From the sequence record PZ379182.1: 46,134 bases of DNA; one strand, written 5' to 3'. The notes under the pieces are model-generated. The model saw only the letters and a program-made list of their open reading frames with translations, ran no database searches and had not been told where the DNA came from. Made by a program: the position numbers and the translations under genes. The first letter of the stretch is position 1. Each line of letters opens with the position of its first letter. The DNA is from a phage. Shown piece by piece: positions 935 through 46,134 of this stretch.

Positions 935-1008
935 GTGATCACCTTTAAATGCTAATTTGTCAATACATAGTGCAAATATCATACATTAGGCGGTGGCAAA
1001 TTATAAGC

Positions 1009-1034
1009 AAAAAAGGGGAGCCAAAAGGCCCCCC
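1009..1034 (-). terminator. putative intrinsic terminator (imperfect GC hairpin plus T-run on minus strand)
   Basis: GGGGGGCC-TTTT-GGCTCCCC followed by TTTTTT when read on the minus strand. Confidence 0.4.
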
Positions 1035-1060
1035 GCATGCAAATCTATGTTTTTGATGTG

Positions 1061-1234
1061 TTAATCTGCGATAATAAATTCCACCAAAGAGCCATCAATC
1101 GGCGCAAGGATGTGAGTCATATCGTCACCGTAAACTTTGTAGTAACCGTCACCTAGAGACTCTGCGCTGTACGGCTGGTTTTCGGTGAACGGCAGTGTCT
1201 TTGAGTTGTTTTTAACGCAGTATAATTTAGTCAT
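1061..1234 (-). CDS. hypothetical protein (57 aa)
   Basis: ORF below the track size cut-off; AGAGGA RBS before ATG; preceded by a copy of the intergenic cassette. Confidence 0.35.
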   Translation of the reverse strand: MTKLYCVKNNSKTLPFTENQPYSAESLGDGYYKVYGDDMTHILAPIDGSLVEFIIAD

Positions 1235-1239
1235 TTTTG

Positions 1240-1311
1240 AATCCTCTGTTGTTTTCGATGTAGTAATTATGCCGGATTACTCCGGCGATTGTTTAGCAAT
1301 TCGTGCTATTT
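1240..1311 (-). promoter_or_regulatory. intergenic cassette copy (palindromic motif, GC hairpin, CGAAA box) upstream of a small ORF
   Basis: Minus strand AAATAGCACGAATTGCTAAA, then GCCGGAGTAATCCGGC hairpin, then CATAATTACTACATCGAAAAC, RBS, ATG. Confidence 0.6.
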
Positions 1312-1846
1312 ATTACGTGCATTACCAAAGCAGAGGTTCCATCAATATCACCATCTACAACATGAACGTCAATTTCTCTTGCGCAGACACCGCGAATGTA
1401 GGAGCGGCTATCTCCATCAAAAGTATAGCCAGGCCTAAAAAGTCTAATCAAAGTAACTTCAACCCCTGAATCAATGAGAGTATTAATCTCGCTAGCGAAG
1501 CCACCATCAGCACAGATATAGCAACCATCACCAAGTGATTGCGCTAGCCTTTTACCGAAAACATCATCACCAAAGACTGGCTTCATAACTGACTCACTAA
1601 TCCAAATCATAAATTCACGAACCGTCATTCCACCAAGAAATTCATGTGGTGATTCTTTGTACTCTCGGTCATCGTAATTCTTAATAAATTCATCAAACTC
1701 ATCGCTTGATAGTATTCCTTTTGCAACATTAAACATTGGTGACTTGAATGAAACCTTATCCTTGCAAATTCCAAGATTAACAATGATATCTGCAACTGTA
1801 TCTTTTCCAGCACCAGGGGTGCATTAAGGATGATTAACTTTTTCAT
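1293..1846 (-). CDS. P-loop kinase, polynucleotide-kinase-like; reading frame interrupted near the 5' end
   Basis: ATG at 1846 with GGAGA RBS gives MKKLIILNA in one frame; Walker A PGAGKDT and the rest (track ORF 1293..1736) lie in another frame; the shift maps to a CCCC run. Confidence 0.6.
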
Positions 1847-1847
1847 T

Positions 1848-2322
1848 TTATTCTCCGTGAGATTCGCAGTCTTTTGGTAATTCTTTATATTCACAAACTG
1901 ACATTACAGTATATCCGCAATTCCTTAGGTGACTGATAACATTAGGATTATCCTCAAAGATTATCACACTTGCTTTGTCACCATTACACAAATCATTTAG
2001 CCACATCTCTTTAATGATATAGTCATTTGCTGTTATCCAATCTACTCCTCATATATATTCCATCATAATTAATATTATTATACTGAAGCCATTCAAGCGT
2101 CATACATTCGACTTCGTCACTTCTTGAAGTCATGATGTAAACTGGCGATAACTCAGCTAACGCATTCATCATGTTTATCATTGGAATTATCGGTGAATCT
2201 CCAGAACAGGCTCTATTGTAATCACTCCAACTTGAAGTCAAGTGAAGGTCACTAGATGGTAAGAGGTGGCTTCTATGTTCATTGTTAGCAATAGTTCCAT
2301 CAATATCAAACACGTAAATCAT
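1848..2322 (-). CDS. HAD-family phosphatase (Pnk 3'-phosphatase-like); reading frame interrupted
   Basis: Track ORF 2023..2322 has HAD motif I (FDIDGTIA) and motif II (IMTSRS); a C-terminal part with a FEDNP motif continues in another frame to a TAA just before the kinase ATG. Confidence 0.5.
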
Positions 2323-2395
2323 TACAACTCCTCATCTCGTTATCGTTTATTCATTTTGCCTCAATCCTTTGAGGCTTTATTAACAAAAAGTGCTA

Positions 2396-3529
2396 TTACT
2401 TAAACATTTCAGGTCGGCAAGTGAATCGACCAACTTCACCGTACTCTGAGCTATAGATAATTACTGAGGCCTGACGATAAGAGCGATACCCTCCGTTTGC
2501 GCTGTACGCATCTTTAGCACCCAACTGACCGTGTGACTCATCAATTCCAAGATTACCCTCAGTAACCGTCTGATGATGATAATGGCCACTATGTGTATAA
2601 ACGTATTCAGCATTACCAAATGCTTTGCGATGGTCGCGCGCAAGAGTTGAAAGACGAGTGTCAGGCTTTCGCAATTCATGACCATGGCAGTAACCCAACA
2701 ATGTTTTACCAAACTCCGTCACATGAAGAGCGGCTGGTGAGGCATCAACATTTACACGAGGCTCATCCATGTAGAAGGCAGCCATTGCAGCTCGAAGCCA
2801 AATCATCCCAGAAAGGTCGTGGTTGCCTGGTATAATCTGAACCTCAACCTCTTTATGCTTGTCAAGCATCTTACTGACTGCGCGGCGAGTTGCACGAACA
2901 GCTACGTAGACAAGTTTATGATAACGGCTATCTTGATCAAGTACGTGCTTGCTGGTTGGAGTTACAGCTTCCATTCCATCCGAGTGAAGGAAGTCTCCAC
3001 CAATCAGTAATACGGCTTTTGATGAATTCGGGGCCTTAGCAACTGCATAATCAAAGTATTGGTTAAGCACTCGCTCTGCAATTTCTGTACTGTAGTTCTC
3101 CCCACACTCTGCATGGTGAGCCATTGCGCCAATATGCATATCAAACACGGGGTAGAGGCTCAAGGTGTCCTCATAGCTTGATTCACTGAGTGGTTTCGGA
3201 GTCTCTCGAGGGAGCTCATCTGTAAGCGCCTGAACAATCTGCTGAAGCATCTCTTCTTGTTTCTGTTCGTCGATGGAAGTTTTAACCCAGCGCAGCTTCT
3301 CATTACCATCCGCATCAATCATTGTTGAAGTGCCTTTAACAAGATAGCCATCAGGAACTAGCTTCTTGATGCCTTCATTACCATGCCCAACCCCACTCTT
3401 AGCCAACTTGCTACGACGAAGCTCAACGTTTCGAATGTTCATTCCGTACTTCTCTGCAATCGCCTTGTTAGTCAGGCCGTTTTTCAGTTCTTCGATCAAC
3501 TGCTCGTTGGTAATCTTTGCTGCTGCCAT
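2396..3529 (-). CDS. calcineurin-like metallophosphoesterase with N-terminal helix-turn-helix domain
   Basis: 377 aa; motifs DMH, GDFLH, GNHD, GH, GHYHH of the metallophosphoesterase superfamily; N-terminal HTH-like segment. Confidence 0.8.
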   Translation of the reverse strand: MAAAKITNEQLIEELKNGLTNKAIAEKYGMNIRNVELRRSKLAKSGVGHGNEGIKKLVPDGYLVKGTSTMIDADGNEKLRWVKTSIDEQKQEEMLQQIVQALTDELPRETPKPLSESSYEDTLSLYPVFDMHIGAMAHHAECGENYSTEIAERVLNQYFDYAVAKAPNSSKAVLLIGGDFLHSDGMEAVTPTSKHVLDQDSRYHKLVYVAVRATRRAVSKMLDKHKEVEVQIIPGNHDLSGMIWLRAAMAAFYMDEPRVNVDASPAALHVTEFGKTLLGYCHGHELRKPDTRLSTLARDHRKAFGNAEYVYTHSGHYHHQTVTEGNLGIDESHGQLGAKDAYSANGGYRSYRQASVIIYSSEYGEVGRFTCRPEMFK

Positions 3530-3610
3530 TTTTAAGTCCTTAGTTCATCACGATAAAATATAAGATAGTAAAGCTAACCAGTGGTGCTAATGCTACTAGG
3601 GCTACGTACC

Positions 3611-3862
3611 TCATTCAACCTCTTTTAACCAGAAATCCAACAAATCAGCACTAATTGCTAATTTTTGGTCCATGTCTGTCATGCACAGATTACCGCACGC
3701 TGGAGAGTAGTAAATCTGTACCCATTTACCGTCCTTCGTCTTCGCGTTAACATCCACATAGTCAGGTGGAAACCAGTCATCAATAGGTATCGCTCTAAAC
3801 CTGGCTCCGCTACTACCATGCACTAAATCATAATGCTTTGGCTGGAAATCTAATCCAAACAT
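3611..3862 (-). CDS. hypothetical protein
   Basis: 83-aa ORF co-oriented with the leftward operon. Confidence 0.45.
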   Translation of the reverse strand: MFGLDFQPKHYDLVHGSSGARFRAIPIDDWFPPDYVDVNAKTKDGKWVQIYYSPACGNLCMTDMDQKLAISADLLDFWLKEVE

Positions 3863-3880
3863 AATTAACCCTTCGTTATC

Positions 3881-4108
3881 TTAAATTTGAATCCCTGTCT
3901 CTTTCAGGAACTCATTCGTGTTTATCGTGACGCCAGGTTTAACACTGAGATACTTGCGCGGCCTTTCATCCATGTACGTAAACTTACCGTTGAAGATGAC
4001 ACTGATATCTTTTATATCGAAGTACTTAGATATCATCTTAATGTCGTCCTGAATGCCAGCCTCTGCGCAGTGGGCCCAGACTGCGGCCCGTCCTGTTTCA
4101 ACTATCAT
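3881..4108 (-). CDS. hypothetical protein
   Basis: 75-aa ORF co-oriented with neighbours. Confidence 0.4.
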   Translation of the reverse strand: MIVETGRAAVWAHCAEAGIQDDIKMISKYFDIKDISVIFNGKFTYMDERPRKYLSVKPGVTINTNEFLKETGIQI

Positions 4109-4263
4109 AAGCCGTATGCCAATTTCAGGTATTCACGCGCACACATCCAATGACTCATTCTGATTGAAACTCAACTGCATCAACTCAGTATAAATGTTGG
4201 GCAATCCTAAACATCTCCTTATCTACGATTTTCATTATTCAAAATCCTCCGGGCAATCTTTTT

Positions 4264-4458
4264 TCATTTCCGCAATGTCTGCAACCATGCGGTCGCGCCA
4301 TGTTTCGATGTCCGTTCGCAAGTAATCTTCTTCAAAACTGTAATCAAGGCATCCAGGCTAAATCCCATAACATCACCTTTATAACCAGCATTGTGTAGCT
4401 CCTGAACCGCCATCGCCTGAAATAGTTCCCATTGTTTGTCAAATGTTAAAATTGCCAT
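4264..4458 (-). CDS. hypothetical protein; 3' part appears to continue in another frame
   Basis: 64-aa ORF; a protein-like continuation (DYSFEEDYLRTDIETWRDRMVADIAEMKKDCPEDFE) is readable in a second frame downstream to about 4190. Confidence 0.35.
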   Translation of the reverse strand: MAILTFDKQWELFQAMAVQELHNAGYKGDVMGFSLDALITVLKKITCERTSKHGATAWLQTLRK

Positions 4459-4463
4459 TACTC

Positions 4464-4658
4464 TTATACCTCATCAAATTTTTCGCCGAATTCGTTTTTA
4501 ACAGTTTCCAGATCATATCTGTAAGTTGGGCTAACTTCGAATGCATATGTGCAGTCTTCAATGTCAACCAAAACATAACCATCTTCAGTTACTTGCATCT
4601 CGTAGATGTAGCCAGTCTTGCGTGATTCGTAGAATTTACCAGTATAGATAGTAGCCAT
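4464..4658 (-). CDS. hypothetical protein
   Basis: 64-aa ORF; AGAGAGAAAG RBS region; preceded by intergenic cassette copy at 4680-4742. Confidence 0.5.
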   Translation of the reverse strand: MATIYTGKFYESRKTGYIYEMQVTEDGYVLVDIEDCTYAFEVSPTYRYDLETVKNEFGEKFDEV

Positions 4659-4679
4659 TTTCTTTCTCTCTTTGTGTGT

Positions 4680-4742
4680 TTCGTTTCGATGAGTTGATAA
4701 TACACCAACTCACCAATTCGTCTTTAGCAATTCGTGCTATTT
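4680..4742 (-). promoter_or_regulatory. intergenic cassette copy
   Basis: Minus strand AAATAGCACGAATTGCTAAAG ... TATTATCAACTCATCGAAACGAAAC then RBS. Confidence 0.6.
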
Positions 4743-5006
4743 TCTTATCATCTCTGCGAATGCCGCAAGAAAACCCTCTCTTCCATAAGCCACCGCTGCG
4801 AAACCGCCTGATTCCCTTACGCTTTTTAGGAATGACTTTTGCTCATTGCTAACTGGGCTTGCTTGCGTTTTACCAGCCCTCTTTAACTCTATGGCGCCAA
4901 ATGGATAACCGCCACGCAATGACTCAGGTATCAGAAATAAGCAGTCTGACACACCTTTGAGAAGCCCCTTGGCTTGGTCTTTCCTTGCTTGGCCAATGCT
5001 CTTCAT
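4737..5006 (-). CDS. VRR-NUC domain nuclease (PD-(D/E)xK fold)
   Basis: Track ORF 4737..5036 begins at a TTG; first ATG at about 5006; IPESLRGGYPFGAIELK resembles the VRR-NUC core. Confidence 0.6.
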   Translation of the reverse strand: MKSIGQARKDQAKGLLKGVSDCLFLIPESLRGGYPFGAIELKRAGKTQASPVSNEQKSFLKSVRESGGFAAVAYGREGFLAAFAEMIRK

Positions 5007-5159
5007 TGATTCATTAACTCGTGTGCCAATAGACAATCTGAGGGTAATTGATACTTAACCCAGTCAGAGCAAAATATTTGTTCGTCATCTTCCTTTGGGC
5101 ATGACTTTACAGGGCCGCCGTAGAACTCGAGGTAATCAATTTTGTCTGTAATTTTCATG
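4998..5159 (-). CDS. hypothetical small Cys-containing protein (about 53 aa)
   Basis: ORF read by eye (MKITDKIDYLEFYGGPVKSCPKEDDEQIFCSDW...); below track cut-off; coordinates approximate. Confidence 0.25.
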
Positions 5160-5393
5160 TTAATCCTCCATCGTGAATGATTTGTTGGCGATAATGTCTT
5201 GAGACTTCTGGTTTTTACGGTGTGTGATTCTCAATGGGGCACGGAATAGATGTGCATTTGTCATAATCATTCTAGCATTACGCAATCTGCCAATTCTGAA
5301 TGCCTCAGTCCTGTTCTCGATGTGTGTTGAGCAGAAACGCCTTCCATTTAACAGAGCAAACGCGATGGTCTGATTCAGGGAAGAATGTTTCAT
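5160..5393 (-). CDS. hypothetical basic protein
   Basis: 77-aa ORF; start overlaps helicase stop; Arg-rich, could be spurious. Confidence 0.3.
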   Translation of the reverse strand: MKHSSLNQTIAFALLNGRRFCSTHIENRTEAFRIGRLRNARMIMTNAHLFRAPLRITHRKNQKSQDIIANKSFTMED

Positions 5394-7159
5394 AAGCTCG
5401 GAATCTTATCTCCACTATGAGCCATAACCTCATATGAAGCAACAATCCCTGACTGGTTCTTTGTTAACCCAATCTTGAAGTCATAAACTCGCAACCAGTC
5501 CCCCTTACGATACATTTTTCCTGATAACTTAGCATTCGGGTCTATGAGCATCTCACCACAGCATCTGCAATTCTTAGCTGCAATATCATTCTTCTCACCG
5601 CATCCTTTCTTAATGATAGCTTTGGTCTGTGGGTCCGCTATATCTTCACACAGTCTAAACTGAAAGAAGTGCTCACAGCGCTTCCAGTCAATTACGTTAT
5701 TGCAGCGCCTGGCTAATGGAGAGTTCACATAAGAGCATACCTGACAGATTCTTGGCTCATCACCACGCTTTCTTGCTGACCTAAATTTCTGGTCTTGTAC
5801 CTCTTCTATAATTGGGTCGAAGTAAAGTTCAGCCATATCATCAAGCGTTCCAGCAAAATCAAGAACAACATGGTCATCTTTTACCATTCCAGCTTCTTTG
5901 TGCTTCTTCTTAAGGATACGCATACCACGACCAAGCAACTGAATGAGTAGAGTAATGCTACCAACCTTCCTCAGGATAATGCTTGTATCCCACGGGGGGC
6001 AGTTTACGCCAGTTGTGAGGCAACCAATCTGAAATATGAACTTATATTCTCCGTTGGCTGCTTTCTCAAGTATCTCCCTACGCTTTTTCTCACCTGTAGA
6101 GTCAGTAACTATGGCCCAAGTAACACCTTTAGGTAGCGCGCTCAGCCGCTTCAATCACAATGCTGTTTTCCAGCGCAAGTTACCAATGCAGCATTCCTTG
6201 TTTCCATAAACTTAGCAGCAAATCCCATTATCTTTTGTGTCATCGTTTGGTTTTCGTGAATCTTTGCAGCCATCGCATCCATTTCTTTCTTGCTGAAGTC
6301 CTTAACCCCATCACTTCCATCAGGAGTGAACTCACTAAGGTCGTAGCCCAAATCACCAACTTCACCGTAGACAGTAGGAACAACGAACCCCAAGTCAACA
6401 AGGTAGCTGGTTGGCACTTGCATTACAGTTTTGCGCCAGAATCCACGGACATTTGGGTTACTAACTACAATGTGGTCGTTGTTACGGTACGGGCTACCAG
6501 TTAACCCAAAGATACGAAGTTCGCGACCGTACTTCTCCTTGCATCGACGCTTCATTTCGGTAATGATTAACGTGTATTGCGCGCGACCAGTGCCAAGCAA
6601 GCCCGGTATTCACACCATCCTTAAAGACCATCTCACCCTTCTTCGTGCTCATCTGCTCGAATGTTTCCTCATTCTCTTCAGCTTCTACGATATCCATATG
6701 GTCAACCATATGACATTCATCTATCGCAATAACGGCAGGAACATAGTCACCAAGGCCCTTAAACAAGCCGTTAGCAGCTGTGCCCTCACTAGCCACTATG
6801 GTTGGGTAGTAAACTGATTTAACGTTAAGGCCAGCGCAATAGACGCTATTACGGATGCCGAAGTTACGAAGCTCTTCTGAGTTCTGGCTGATTATCTCTG
6901 ACTGGCGAGAAAGAACCATATAAGGAAGCCCAAGCTGCTCCATGCGCTTACCAATCATAGCAAGAATAATTGTCTTACCCGCAGACACCGAGAGGTCTGC
7001 GATAAATGGGGCCTCGTACTTTCCAATAGCCTTTCCGATTGCATCAAATGTCACGCACTGGAACTCGTAAGGTGTTATCTCTCCAAACTGATAATCTTTC
7101 TGAATCTGTTTAATTCTTTCTTTATCGAAATTTGCAACCAGCTTCTCGATAGGCAACAT
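5390..7159 (-). CDS. superfamily-2 DNA helicase (DEAD/DEAH-box type); reading frame interrupted twice
   Basis: Track ORFs 6494..7159 (motif I SVSAGKT, motif II DECH), 6151..6600 (LTGSPYR, motif IV-like ALVTCAGKQH) and 5390..6154 (motif V TTGVNCP, motif VI QLLGRGMR) are consecutive parts of one helicase in different frames; the two downstream track ORFs begin at TTG right after stops in their own frame. Confidence 0.7.
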
Positions 7160-25275: not shown

Positions 25276-25840
25276 AAGTCAAAAACAATAAATCTCAGTA
25301 TGTATAATACATTAACACTTCGACTTTGGGGGTAAAATGTTTAAATATTTGTTTGATTATGATGGAATGAAATTGATATGGAAAAACCCAACATCACCTA
25401 GATTCACAAAGGGCGACGTTGCGGGAACTAAGCATAAGAGAGGATACATTCAAGTTTGCTTTAATAGGAAGCTATACCTTGCTCATAGGATAATATGGGA
25501 GATGCATCATGGCGAGATACCTGAAGGGATGCAGATTGACCATGTAAATCAGGACAAATCAGATAACAGGATTTCAAACCTAAGGCTAGTCACGCAGCAG
25601 GAAAACAAAAAGAACAAACCAAAGCAAGTAAGAAACTCTAGCGGAGTTAATGGTGTATCTTGGAATAAATCAAATGGAAAATGGCAGGTAAGGATAGGTG
25701 TAGATGGAAAAGATGTTCATCTTGGGTATTTTGATAACATTTCAGACGCTAAAAAAGCAAGATTCGATGCTGACTTTAGATTTAAATACCATGAAAATCA
25801 CGGTAACAAAAAGCGCCAGTAGGCGCTTTATTTTTTATCT
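25276..25840 (+). mobile_element. free-standing homing endonuclease cassette (promoter-like sequence, HNH-AP2 gene, terminator-like hairpin) inserted in the tail module
   Basis: TATAAT at about 25310 and GGGGGTAAAATG RBS upstream; AGCGCC-AGTA-GGCGCT hairpin plus T-run at the 3' end; opposite strand to every flanking gene. Confidence 0.6.
25337..25822 (+). CDS. HNH homing endonuclease with AP2 DNA-binding domain
   Basis: 161 aa; HNH motif region IDHVNQDKSDNRISNLRLVTQQEN and AP2-like GVSWNKSNGKWQVRIGVDGKDVHLGYF; antisense to the tail operon. Confidence 0.8.
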   Translation: MFKYLFDYDGMKLIWKNPTSPRFTKGDVAGTKHKRGYIQVCFNRKLYLAHRIIWEMHHGEIPEGMQIDHVNQDKSDNRISNLRLVTQQENKKNKPKQVRNSSGVNGVSWNKSNGKWQVRIGVDGKDVHLGYFDNISDAKKARFDADFRFKYHENHGNKKRQ

Positions 25841-37129: not shown

Positions 37130-37205
37130 TGGTGTTCCGCACTGGACTCGAACCAGTAACTAAGACTTAGGAGGTCTTTGCGTTATCCTGTTACGCCAGC
37201 AGAAC
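37130..37205 (-). tRNA. tRNA-Arg (anticodon CCU, reads AGG)
   Basis: 76 nt folded by eye: acceptor GTTCTGC/GCGGAAC (one G-U), D-arm GCGT/ACGC, anticodon stem AAGAC/GTCTT with loop CUCCUAA, T-arm ACTGG-TTCGAGT-CCAGT, encoded CCA. Confidence 0.8.
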
Positions 37206-37591: not shown

Positions 37592-38390
37592 CAAAACTCC
37601 TCAGTTATAAGCATCTTGCCACAATCTTTGCACTCGTAGAATGCACATGCTTTCACCAACTAATAGACTTGGTTTTGTTGACTCGTGGTACTTGCATCGT
37701 TTAGCGCTTTAATGTCAAAATCGTTAATGATTTGATGTGAACACGTAAACGTAGCGATGCTTGTGATTGATTTCTTTATTATTCATAAAGGCTATTCCCA
37801 TTCTGATCATGGCCTACGCGACATTTTCTATAACCAGCAATCCACACAAATTTGTCTCGAGCAATTAGTGTCGAAACCGGCCCCCACACTTGAGTAATCA
37901 GCGCTGCCACTACCTTATCATCTTTCTTCTTTGCGCCCAAGTTTGCCGTATTCGTCATTCAGCTTATCAGCCTGTCGCTTGACTGCGTTAAAGTATGCGT
38001 CGTCTAATCCGAACATTATTCATCATCCTCCTCGCATGCTATGAGACTATCGCAATTATCACGGCATCGCAAATGCCTTTGGTGCTTTAGCTATTCGTGG
38101 CTGTAAATCAAGTCAGCAATGACTTAACAAATTCGATCTGGAGTAACCATCTCATTCGCTTCGTATGGCTCTATGCAATCTCTTCGTTGTATGAATGAGT
38201 TGAACGTTATCATGGCAAATCCGATGCGCTGTCATGCAATTACGCAATTCGTGCGTATGCCATTTCTTATCTTCACGCTCTTTCCATAGATTTCAGTTAG
38301 CTCGTAAGTACATTCATGGCATCTTCGCCAGTCTTAGCCTCATCCATGCATCCGTGCAGGCCCACTGGCTTGGTGTTTCGTAGTTATCCA

Positions 38391-45973: not shown

Positions 45974-46006
45974 AAATAGCCCCATTACGGGGCTTTTTTG
46001 TTTTTC
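45974..46006. terminator. bidirectional intrinsic terminator
   Basis: AGCCCC-ATTAC-GGGGCT flanked by A-run and T-run. Confidence 0.7.
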
Positions 46007-46134
46007 CTGAATATCATTAAGAGCAGAATGATGATGACGCAAAACATGATTCCACTCCCAATCCACGGGATTGCAGACGAATCATTGTTGGTGATTTCAA
46101 TCTTCTCAGCCGTGATTGTTGATGCCTTGATTGA
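45985..46134 (-). CDS. hypothetical membrane protein, C-terminal fragment (gene continues beyond window)
   Basis: Frame open from the window edge to a TAA in the terminator loop; C-terminal hydrophobic segment IMFCVIIILLLMIF. Confidence 0.3.
   Translation of the reverse strand, partial: SIKASTITAEKIEITNNDSSAIPWIGSGIMFCVIIILLLMIFRKNKKAP

Follow-up and report, generated by a model that had tools for sequence, protein, structure and literature searches.

In phage T4, tRNA repair depends on a 5'-kinase and a 3'-phosphatase/cyclic phosphodiesterase acting with RNA ligase 1. The phosphatase of T4 Pnkp (pseT) uses Asp165 as nucleophile and Asp167 as acid/base, together with Ser211, the phosphate-binding Lys258 and the Mg2+-binding Asp278 (PMC3592404). 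In Pnkp1 of Capnocytophaga gingivalis (PDB 4XRP), kinase and phosphatase are fused, and the protein acts together with an RNA ligase and Hen1. In the Drexlerviridae, a pair of genes is annotated as 'PNK' and 'dNMP kinase/ATPase' (SU57_00064/65, OzMSK 059/060 and AN_ECEAS XES82154/55). In 522 Drexlerviridae genomes surveyed in 2026, the commonest genes placed after the exonuclease gene in phages that have no SH3 gene are 'polynucleotide kinase' and 'dNMP kinase', while the SH3 gene and the kinase/phosphatase pair occur together in 7 genomes only; the authors of the survey suggested a role in nucleotide supply (PMC13164509). No experimental work on these proteins was found in the literature, nor anything relevant to an anti-defence role of the Drexlerviridae PNK.

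The stretch of DNA analysed here (the window; 46,134 nt, record PZ379182.1) covers the complete genome of a T1-like coliphage (Drexlerviridae, Braunvirinae) in circularly permuted form; the closest phage records are those of Escherichia phages ES and AN_ECEAS (91-94% identity). Its spanin gene is split by the two ends (1-237 and 45988-46134), so that the window represents the genome in full, linearised at an arbitrary position. A phosphatase gene and a kinase gene lie on its minus strand, between a metallophosphoesterase gene on the 5' side and the lysis genes on the 3' side. The features that matter for the analysis are the following:

2396..3529, minus strand: metallophosphoesterase gene, 377 aa, upstream of the pair, intact; PHROG 704 'DNA repair exonuclease' (3.4e-150)
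2328..2333, minus strand: ribosome-binding site of the phosphatase gene, GAGGAG; SU57 and OzMSK have an annotated ribosome-binding site in this position
2322..1848, minus strand: phosphatase gene of the HAD type with a DxDGT motif, 475 nt against 474 in the intact form, frame-broken
2322..2023, minus strand: N-terminal ORF of the phosphatase, 99 aa, beginning MIYVFDIDGT
2029, minus strand: extra base in the phosphatase gene, C on the coding strand and G on the plus strand, AACAG[C]AAATGAC
up to the TAA at 1850-1848, minus strand: last 59 codons of the phosphatase, including the FEDN motif, in the other frame
1853..1856, minus strand: ribosome-binding site of the kinase gene, GGAG, within the last phosphatase codons; an equivalent site is annotated in SU57 and OzMSK
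1846..1293, minus strand: P-loop kinase gene, 554 nt against 555, with its ATG at 1846 and its stop at 1293, a pseudogene
1816-1819, minus strand: run of four C (C4) in the kinase gene, GCACCCC-TGG, a one-base deletion compared with the C5 of AN_ECEAS and ES
1061..1234, minus strand: DUF7244 (SH3-like) gene, 57 aa, downstream of the pair and followed by the holin-endolysin-spanin cassette
37130-37205, minus strand: tRNA-Arg gene, anticodon CCT; a tRNA-Arg is likewise annotated in phage SU57

The phosphatase stop and the kinase start are one base apart, and for this reason they are taken to form one operon. A first reading made from the sequence only had described a HAD phosphatase (DxDGT) followed by a P-loop kinase (PGAGKDT), and both are indeed encoded on the minus strand. 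It had also pointed out that they are two cistrons, in the reverse order to that of T4 Pnk. The layout is as it was described, but it is no peculiarity of the window, since two cistrons with the phosphatase first are the standard state in the Drexlerviridae relatives, where the genes are intact and encode proteins of 157 and 184 aa. The annotated pairs of SU57, OzMSK and AN_ECEAS are orthologous to that of the window, with the same order, spacing and neighbours, and differ from it in that both reading frames are interrupted in the window. The gene pair is already known as a common, annotated accessory module of T1-like phages. In the window it occurs together with the DUF7244 SH3 gene, an association reported in only seven genomes (PMC13164509).

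We consider it probable that the locus is an ordinary T1-like pair, formed by a phosphatase and a gp1-like dNMP kinase, in which the kinase break is inherited and the phosphatase break is a likely sequence error, and that it is not a split Pnk. The pair would be the accessory cassette that is usual in T1-like coliphages of the Braunvirinae type, transcribed after the metallophosphoesterase gene and before the lysis genes, and its products would be two enzymes that act independently of each other, in nucleotide and DNA-end metabolism, and not the two halves of a polynucleotide kinase. The biological weight of the finding that both genes are disrupted is then small, because it comes down to one trivial pseudogene plus a probable artefact.

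The upstream metallophosphoesterase (2396-3529) matched no Pfam model and no PDB sequence in searches of both collections. By eye, it contains DxH, GDxxH, GNHD, HGH and GHxH motifs and an N-terminal HTH-like segment. The gene call for the orthologous protein in L008, a metagenomic contig described below, is 348 aa long and starts further downstream.

When the region was aligned with its four intact relatives (AN_ECEAS, ES, SU57 and OzMSK), the window differed in length at exactly two sites, by 1 nt each. Removal of the base at 2029 and restoration of one C in the C-run yielded genes of 474 nt (157 aa) and 555 nt (184 aa). These protein lengths are those annotated in the relatives, with the qualification that the ES annotation has only part of the first gene and that the second gene of OzMSK is 552 nt. 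The genes are not chance ORFs, since the restored phosphatase matches Pfam PF25109 (HAD_PNKP; 55.5 bits against a cutoff of 27.6, E=8.6e-15) and PHROG 415 (E=1.3e-48), and the restored kinase matches PHROG 139 (E=6e-42).

The insertion at 2029 falls between codons 97 and 98 of the phosphatase and shifts its frame there, close to the site near 2035 from which the C-terminal part had been suspected to continue in another frame. The shift falls upstream of the equivalents of T4 Asp254, Lys258 and Asp277/278, leaving K104 and E123-D124 out of frame. In the kinase, the start MKKLIILNAP is one frame off from the Walker A motif PGAGKDT; the C4 run at 1816-1819 is the CCCC run that had been pointed out near 1815. 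The Walker A frame contains no start upstream of the P-loop, and its first in-frame start is Met37. Apart from this frameshift, the kinase gene has no further defect in the window. Neither gene is able to yield a full-length product in this genome as sequenced. Searches of IMG/VR and JGI metagenomes for the C4, C5 and 2029 alleles gave no exact-pattern matches. Neither the truncated 99-aa phosphatase product nor the metallophosphoesterase had an exact match on record, and E. coli genomes and plasmids likewise gave none.

The proposal that the two genes form a polynucleotide-kinase-like pair held for the phosphatase. PF25109 was found in 28/28 phosphatase homologues, and all that the family profile matched in the PDB were polynucleotide kinase-phosphatases, with Pnkp1 at 6.3e-8 and a weaker match to T4 Pnk. 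Using hhalign, the family aligned to residues 162-298 of T4 Pnkp. Fold comparisons were made on the intact orthologues P0001 and P0121 (97% and 99% identical), modelled in place of the frame-restored proteins, and the best fold match of the modelled phosphatase orthologue was the phosphatase domain of T4 Pnkp. The window phosphatase is like the C-terminal domain of T4 Pnkp (PDB 1LTQ, 5UJ0) in having the DxDxT acylphosphatase fold, equivalents of Asp165, Asp167, Ser211, Lys258 and Asp278, and an R-x-x-x-D-x-R-(K/N)-D-x-x-x-K-E segment. Motif I (D6-I-D8-G-T10) is invariant in the family alignment, as are T65/S66-R67, K104 and E123-D124, which align to SGR(211-213), K258 and DD(277-278) of T4; the hhalign register near Ser211 is off by one, making the T65/S66 assignment less certain.

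By family, as judged from these comparisons, the gene product is predicted to be a true 3'-phosphatase of the T4 Pnkp type. If the T4 enzyme is taken as the guide, Asp6 would form the acyl-phosphate and Asp8 would act as acid/base, whereas Thr65/Ser66 and Lys104 would hold the phosphate and Asp124 would bind Mg2+. From homology we infer that the enzyme would clear 3'-phosphates from the ends of DNA or RNA, or remove them from 3'-nucleotides. Unlike T4 Pnkp, it is a stand-alone protein of 157 aa without a fused 5'-kinase, it is frame-broken in this genome, and it precedes the kinase as one of two cistrons, with no partner RNA ligase among the large ORFs and relatives' annotations searched. It differs in the same way from the fused Pnkp1 of C. 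gingivalis, and none of the partners of the Pnkp1-Rnl-Hen1 RNA repair complex is present in the window. The label 'polynucleotide kinase' that such 157-aa proteins carry covers the phosphatase domain alone. To our knowledge, no experimental function is known for Pap, a putative acid phosphatase of phage P1. This protein has whole-length BLASTp similarity (4E-17) to the OzMSK orthologue of the phosphatase, according to the OzMSK record.

The second half of the proposal, a Pnk-like kinase, did not survive the profile searches, which assign the kinase to the dNMP-kinase family of T4 gp1, an outcome that the sequence-only reading had itself named as telling against its claim. The family matched, PHROG 139, is annotated as 'deoxynucleoside monophosphate kinase'; the restored kinase covers its profile positions 82-260, and T4 gp1 matches the same family (1.8e-65, positions 83-261) as its sole match. 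The best fold match of the modelled kinase orthologue was 1DEK, which is T4 gp1. Direct comparison of the kinase profile with gp1 gave an hhalign probability of 90.8% over the N-terminal 46 columns only, with weak similarity beyond them, and the alignment with T4 Pnkp was limited to a 27-column P-loop. Searches against Pfam and NCBIfam returned nothing above threshold for the kinase, a single-sequence search of the PDB returned nothing relevant, and a PDB search with the family profile (hmmsearch) returned P-loop-level matches only, with 1DEK at E=0.059. The assignment to gp1 rests on the PHROG and fold results, because the sequence searches of the PDB gave P-loop-level matches at most.

The window kinase therefore resembles T4 gp1 in profile family and closest fold and differs from it in its low identity (~18%), in its length (184 aa against 241 aa) and in belonging to a family without a Pfam model, whereas it has no homology to the 5'-kinase domain of T4 Pnkp past the P-loop. 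On the profile evidence and the modelled fold, the kinase is to be placed with the T4 gp1 dNMP-kinase family and not with Pnk. The 'ATPase' annotated next to the phosphatase in relatives is, accordingly, a dNMP-kinase homologue. All of the ~120 kinase homologues are stand-alone proteins of 181-233 aa, except for one 149-aa fragment. One distant homologue adjoins genes for a thymidine kinase, an NT5C nucleotidase and a ribonucleotide reductase, and others are sited away from any HAD phosphatase. By homology, the intact enzyme would phosphorylate dNMPs derived from host DNA to dNDPs, for use in phage DNA synthesis and the dNTP pool, a role into which a 3'-phosphatase does not readily fit.

These identities bear directly on the suggestion that the two genes encode a split, T4-Pnkp-like end-healing enzyme that repairs tRNA cut by host anticodon nucleases, possibly in connection with the phage tRNA-Arg. 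Its starting points are sound in part: the tRNA-Arg gene exists (anticodon CCT, 37130-37205, minus strand), and the statement that no RNA ligase is evident agrees with our searches: Pfam models run over ten large non-structural ORFs detected no ligase domain, and no RNA ligase is annotated in AN_ECEAS, ES or SU57. Among the components of T4 tRNA repair, the window has only the phosphatase of the right kind. The Pnk-type 5'-kinase is missing, and so, as far as these searches reach, is the RNA ligase; the kinase present groups with gp1 and is a decaying pseudogene in this lineage, and its homologues occur without an adjacent phosphatase, beside thymidine kinase, NT5C and ribonucleotide reductase genes. 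In addition, the target of PrrC is tRNA-Lys and not tRNA-Arg, and no link between tRNA-Arg(CCT) and the phosphatase/kinase locus was found. We therefore regard a tRNA-repair counter-defence as highly unlikely and do not retain it.

A different joint function has to be weighed because of the way in which the genes are distributed. The trio of metallophosphoesterase, HAD_PNKP phosphatase and kinase is also found in Kagunavirus/Jerseyvirus-type phages (K1H, L AB-2017; 391 matching records), on the opposite strand and inside the tail-gene block. It occupies 1389-3555 in L021 and 3-1884 in L022, compared with 1293-3529 in the window, and the window metallophosphoesterase is 45% identical to the L021 protein of the same trio. 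This distribution suggests transfer of all three genes together from one phage family to another. The trio might thus be a mobile cassette whose products act jointly on damaged ends, against nucleases leaving 3'-phosphate and 5'-OH ends: the nuclease would trim, the phosphatase would strip 3'-phosphates, the kinase would phosphorylate the 5'-OH in spite of its dNMP-kinase fold, and the host ligase would seal. The retention of the trio in an unrelated backbone hints at such a joint function, and it is a fact for which the view of two independent enzymes offers no explanation. Even so, we rate the joint action on damaged ends as very unlikely. Were it true, the loss of the kinase in this phage would mark a lineage no longer under pressure from defence nucleases.

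As to the origin of the kinase frameshift, the most informative sequences are two MEGAHIT contigs, L008 (47.9 kb) and L009, assembled from short-read metagenomes in two different ENA assemblies. Both are 98.7% identical to the window over 1000-3600. Their kinase genes carry the same C4 allele and match the window base for base over ~550 nt, except for two further lesions, namely a nonsense codon (TGC to TGA) and a 19-nt deletion (window 1428-1446). In two slightly more distant contigs, L010 and L011, the kinase is intact and the C-run site reads CCTCCA.

The identical C4 allele and the further inactivating lesions of L008 and L009 lead us to the view that the lesion is inherited. The simplest reading of these sequences is that a one-base deletion arose a single time, in an ancestor common to them, and inactivated the gene, and that L008 and L009 would represent later stages in the decay of the same pseudogene. 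The loss of the kinase in one lineage shows that this enzyme is dispensable. It is for hydroxymethyl-dCMP that T4 requires gp1; host kinases can serve a phage whose bases are ordinary, which fits the loss observed here.

Two other explanations of the C4 run were considered. According to the first, the real phage has C5 and an intact kinase, both frame breaks being sequencing errors and the agreement with the C-run of L008 and L009 a coincidence. A change in homopolymer length is the commonest type of error, the window has two other homopolymer undercalls compared with L008 in the next intergenic region (1015 and 1035), and its kinase reading frame has no other defect. Nevertheless, the window kinase equals that of L008 and L009 at every other position over ~550 nt, and these contigs, obtained as short-read assemblies from two samples, bear two more inactivating lesions, as expected if the gene of the ancestor was already dead. 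An error at the C-run is thus improbable in our judgement.

The second explanation takes the C-run as a site of programmed frameshifting or transcriptional slippage, from which a full-length kinase would arise by recoding. The position of the break, within a short homopolymer near the kinase start, is the kind of place where recoding could be sought. Nonetheless, a run of four C is too short for known slippage, no slippery heptamer is present, and the kinase is encoded in a single frame in all other relatives. Since the C4 allele has gained a stop codon and lost 19 nt in L008 and L009, programmed recoding was ruled out, and we give it practically no credence.

In the intergenic hairpin that follows the DUF7244 gene (1011-1036), the window has A6 and C6 where L008 has A7 and C7. 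These shorter runs could be real variation or homopolymer undercalls.

The phosphatase insertion has a different distribution from that of the inherited kinase deletion. It is absent in 8/8 relatives (AN_ECEAS, ES, SU57, OzMSK, L008, L009, L010 and L011), and the phosphatase of L008 and L009 (P0121), 99% identical to that of the window, is intact. The base inserted at 2029 does not duplicate a neighbouring base. It is, moreover, one of ~16 single-base insertions (one of them of two bases) that distinguish the window from L008 (96-99% identical) between 2029 and 6597, nearly none of which duplicates an adjacent base; outside the intergenic homopolymers, the same comparison shows no deletions. 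The sites include 2029, 3899, 4153, 4157, 4180, 4191, 4355, 4371, 5018, 5051, 5334, 5404, 6141, 6153 and 6597. These insertions cut a helicase of the SU57 type (664 aa, 7192-5163) into four ORFs (7192-6497, 6609-6154, 6154-5393 and 5405-5163), and they break the VRR-NUC nuclease gene (5158-4740) and three small genes (4458-4238, 4235-4108 and 4108-3887). A second small patch, at 37648-37939, breaks a 78-aa gene (38016-37782). In the structural genes, which extend over ~30 kb, every gene has a single full-length match and there are no frame breaks.

We infer that the insertion at 2029 and its companions are most likely base-calling or assembly errors, because the spectrum consists entirely of insertions, which ignore coding constraint and, unlike natural slippage mutations, are almost all non-duplicative. 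The sequence is probably of poor quality in the stretches 2029-6597 and 37648-37939, and if the insertion block were taken at face value, false pseudogenes would be the result.

The opposite possibility is that all of the frame breaks are real and that the genome is defective or degenerate, with phosphatase, kinase, helicase, VRR-NUC and several small genes as true pseudogenes. The kinase lesion is demonstrably real in the relatives, and the insertions are clustered within 4.6 kb, in one early-gene block, where uniform random error would predict an even spread; this clustering also speaks against an origin by error. Some accessory genes of the Drexlerviridae are, furthermore, dispensable (PMC13164509). 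It is difficult to reconcile with this possibility that ~16 events were all insertions and almost never duplicated a neighbour, as slippage mutations in nature would do, or that a phage with its helicase in four ORFs and its nuclease broken has an otherwise complete genome with all structural genes intact. In the nearest relative (96-99% identical), all of the genes broken in the window are intact except the kinase. A genome degenerate throughout this block is accordingly unlikely, and we maintain the interpretation of an inherited kinase pseudogene next to a phosphatase gene that is probably misread.

The helicase gene is interrupted in AN_ECEAS, ES and L008 (26012-29146 in L005 and 4039-7173 in L008), where it is represented by an ORF of 269 aa, which corresponds to the helicase N-terminus over its first 155 residues, a 201-aa ORF (in L008) and a 557-aa ORF. 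This interruption may be a mobile insertion. The window (7192-5163) has the contiguous arrangement of the SU57 type. An ORF of 161 aa for an HNH-type homing endonuclease lies on the opposite strand of the window (25337-25822, plus strand), between the tape-measure and tail-assembly-chaperone genes. AN_ECEAS has its HNH genes elsewhere in the genome, and they share only 31-50% identity with this ORF.
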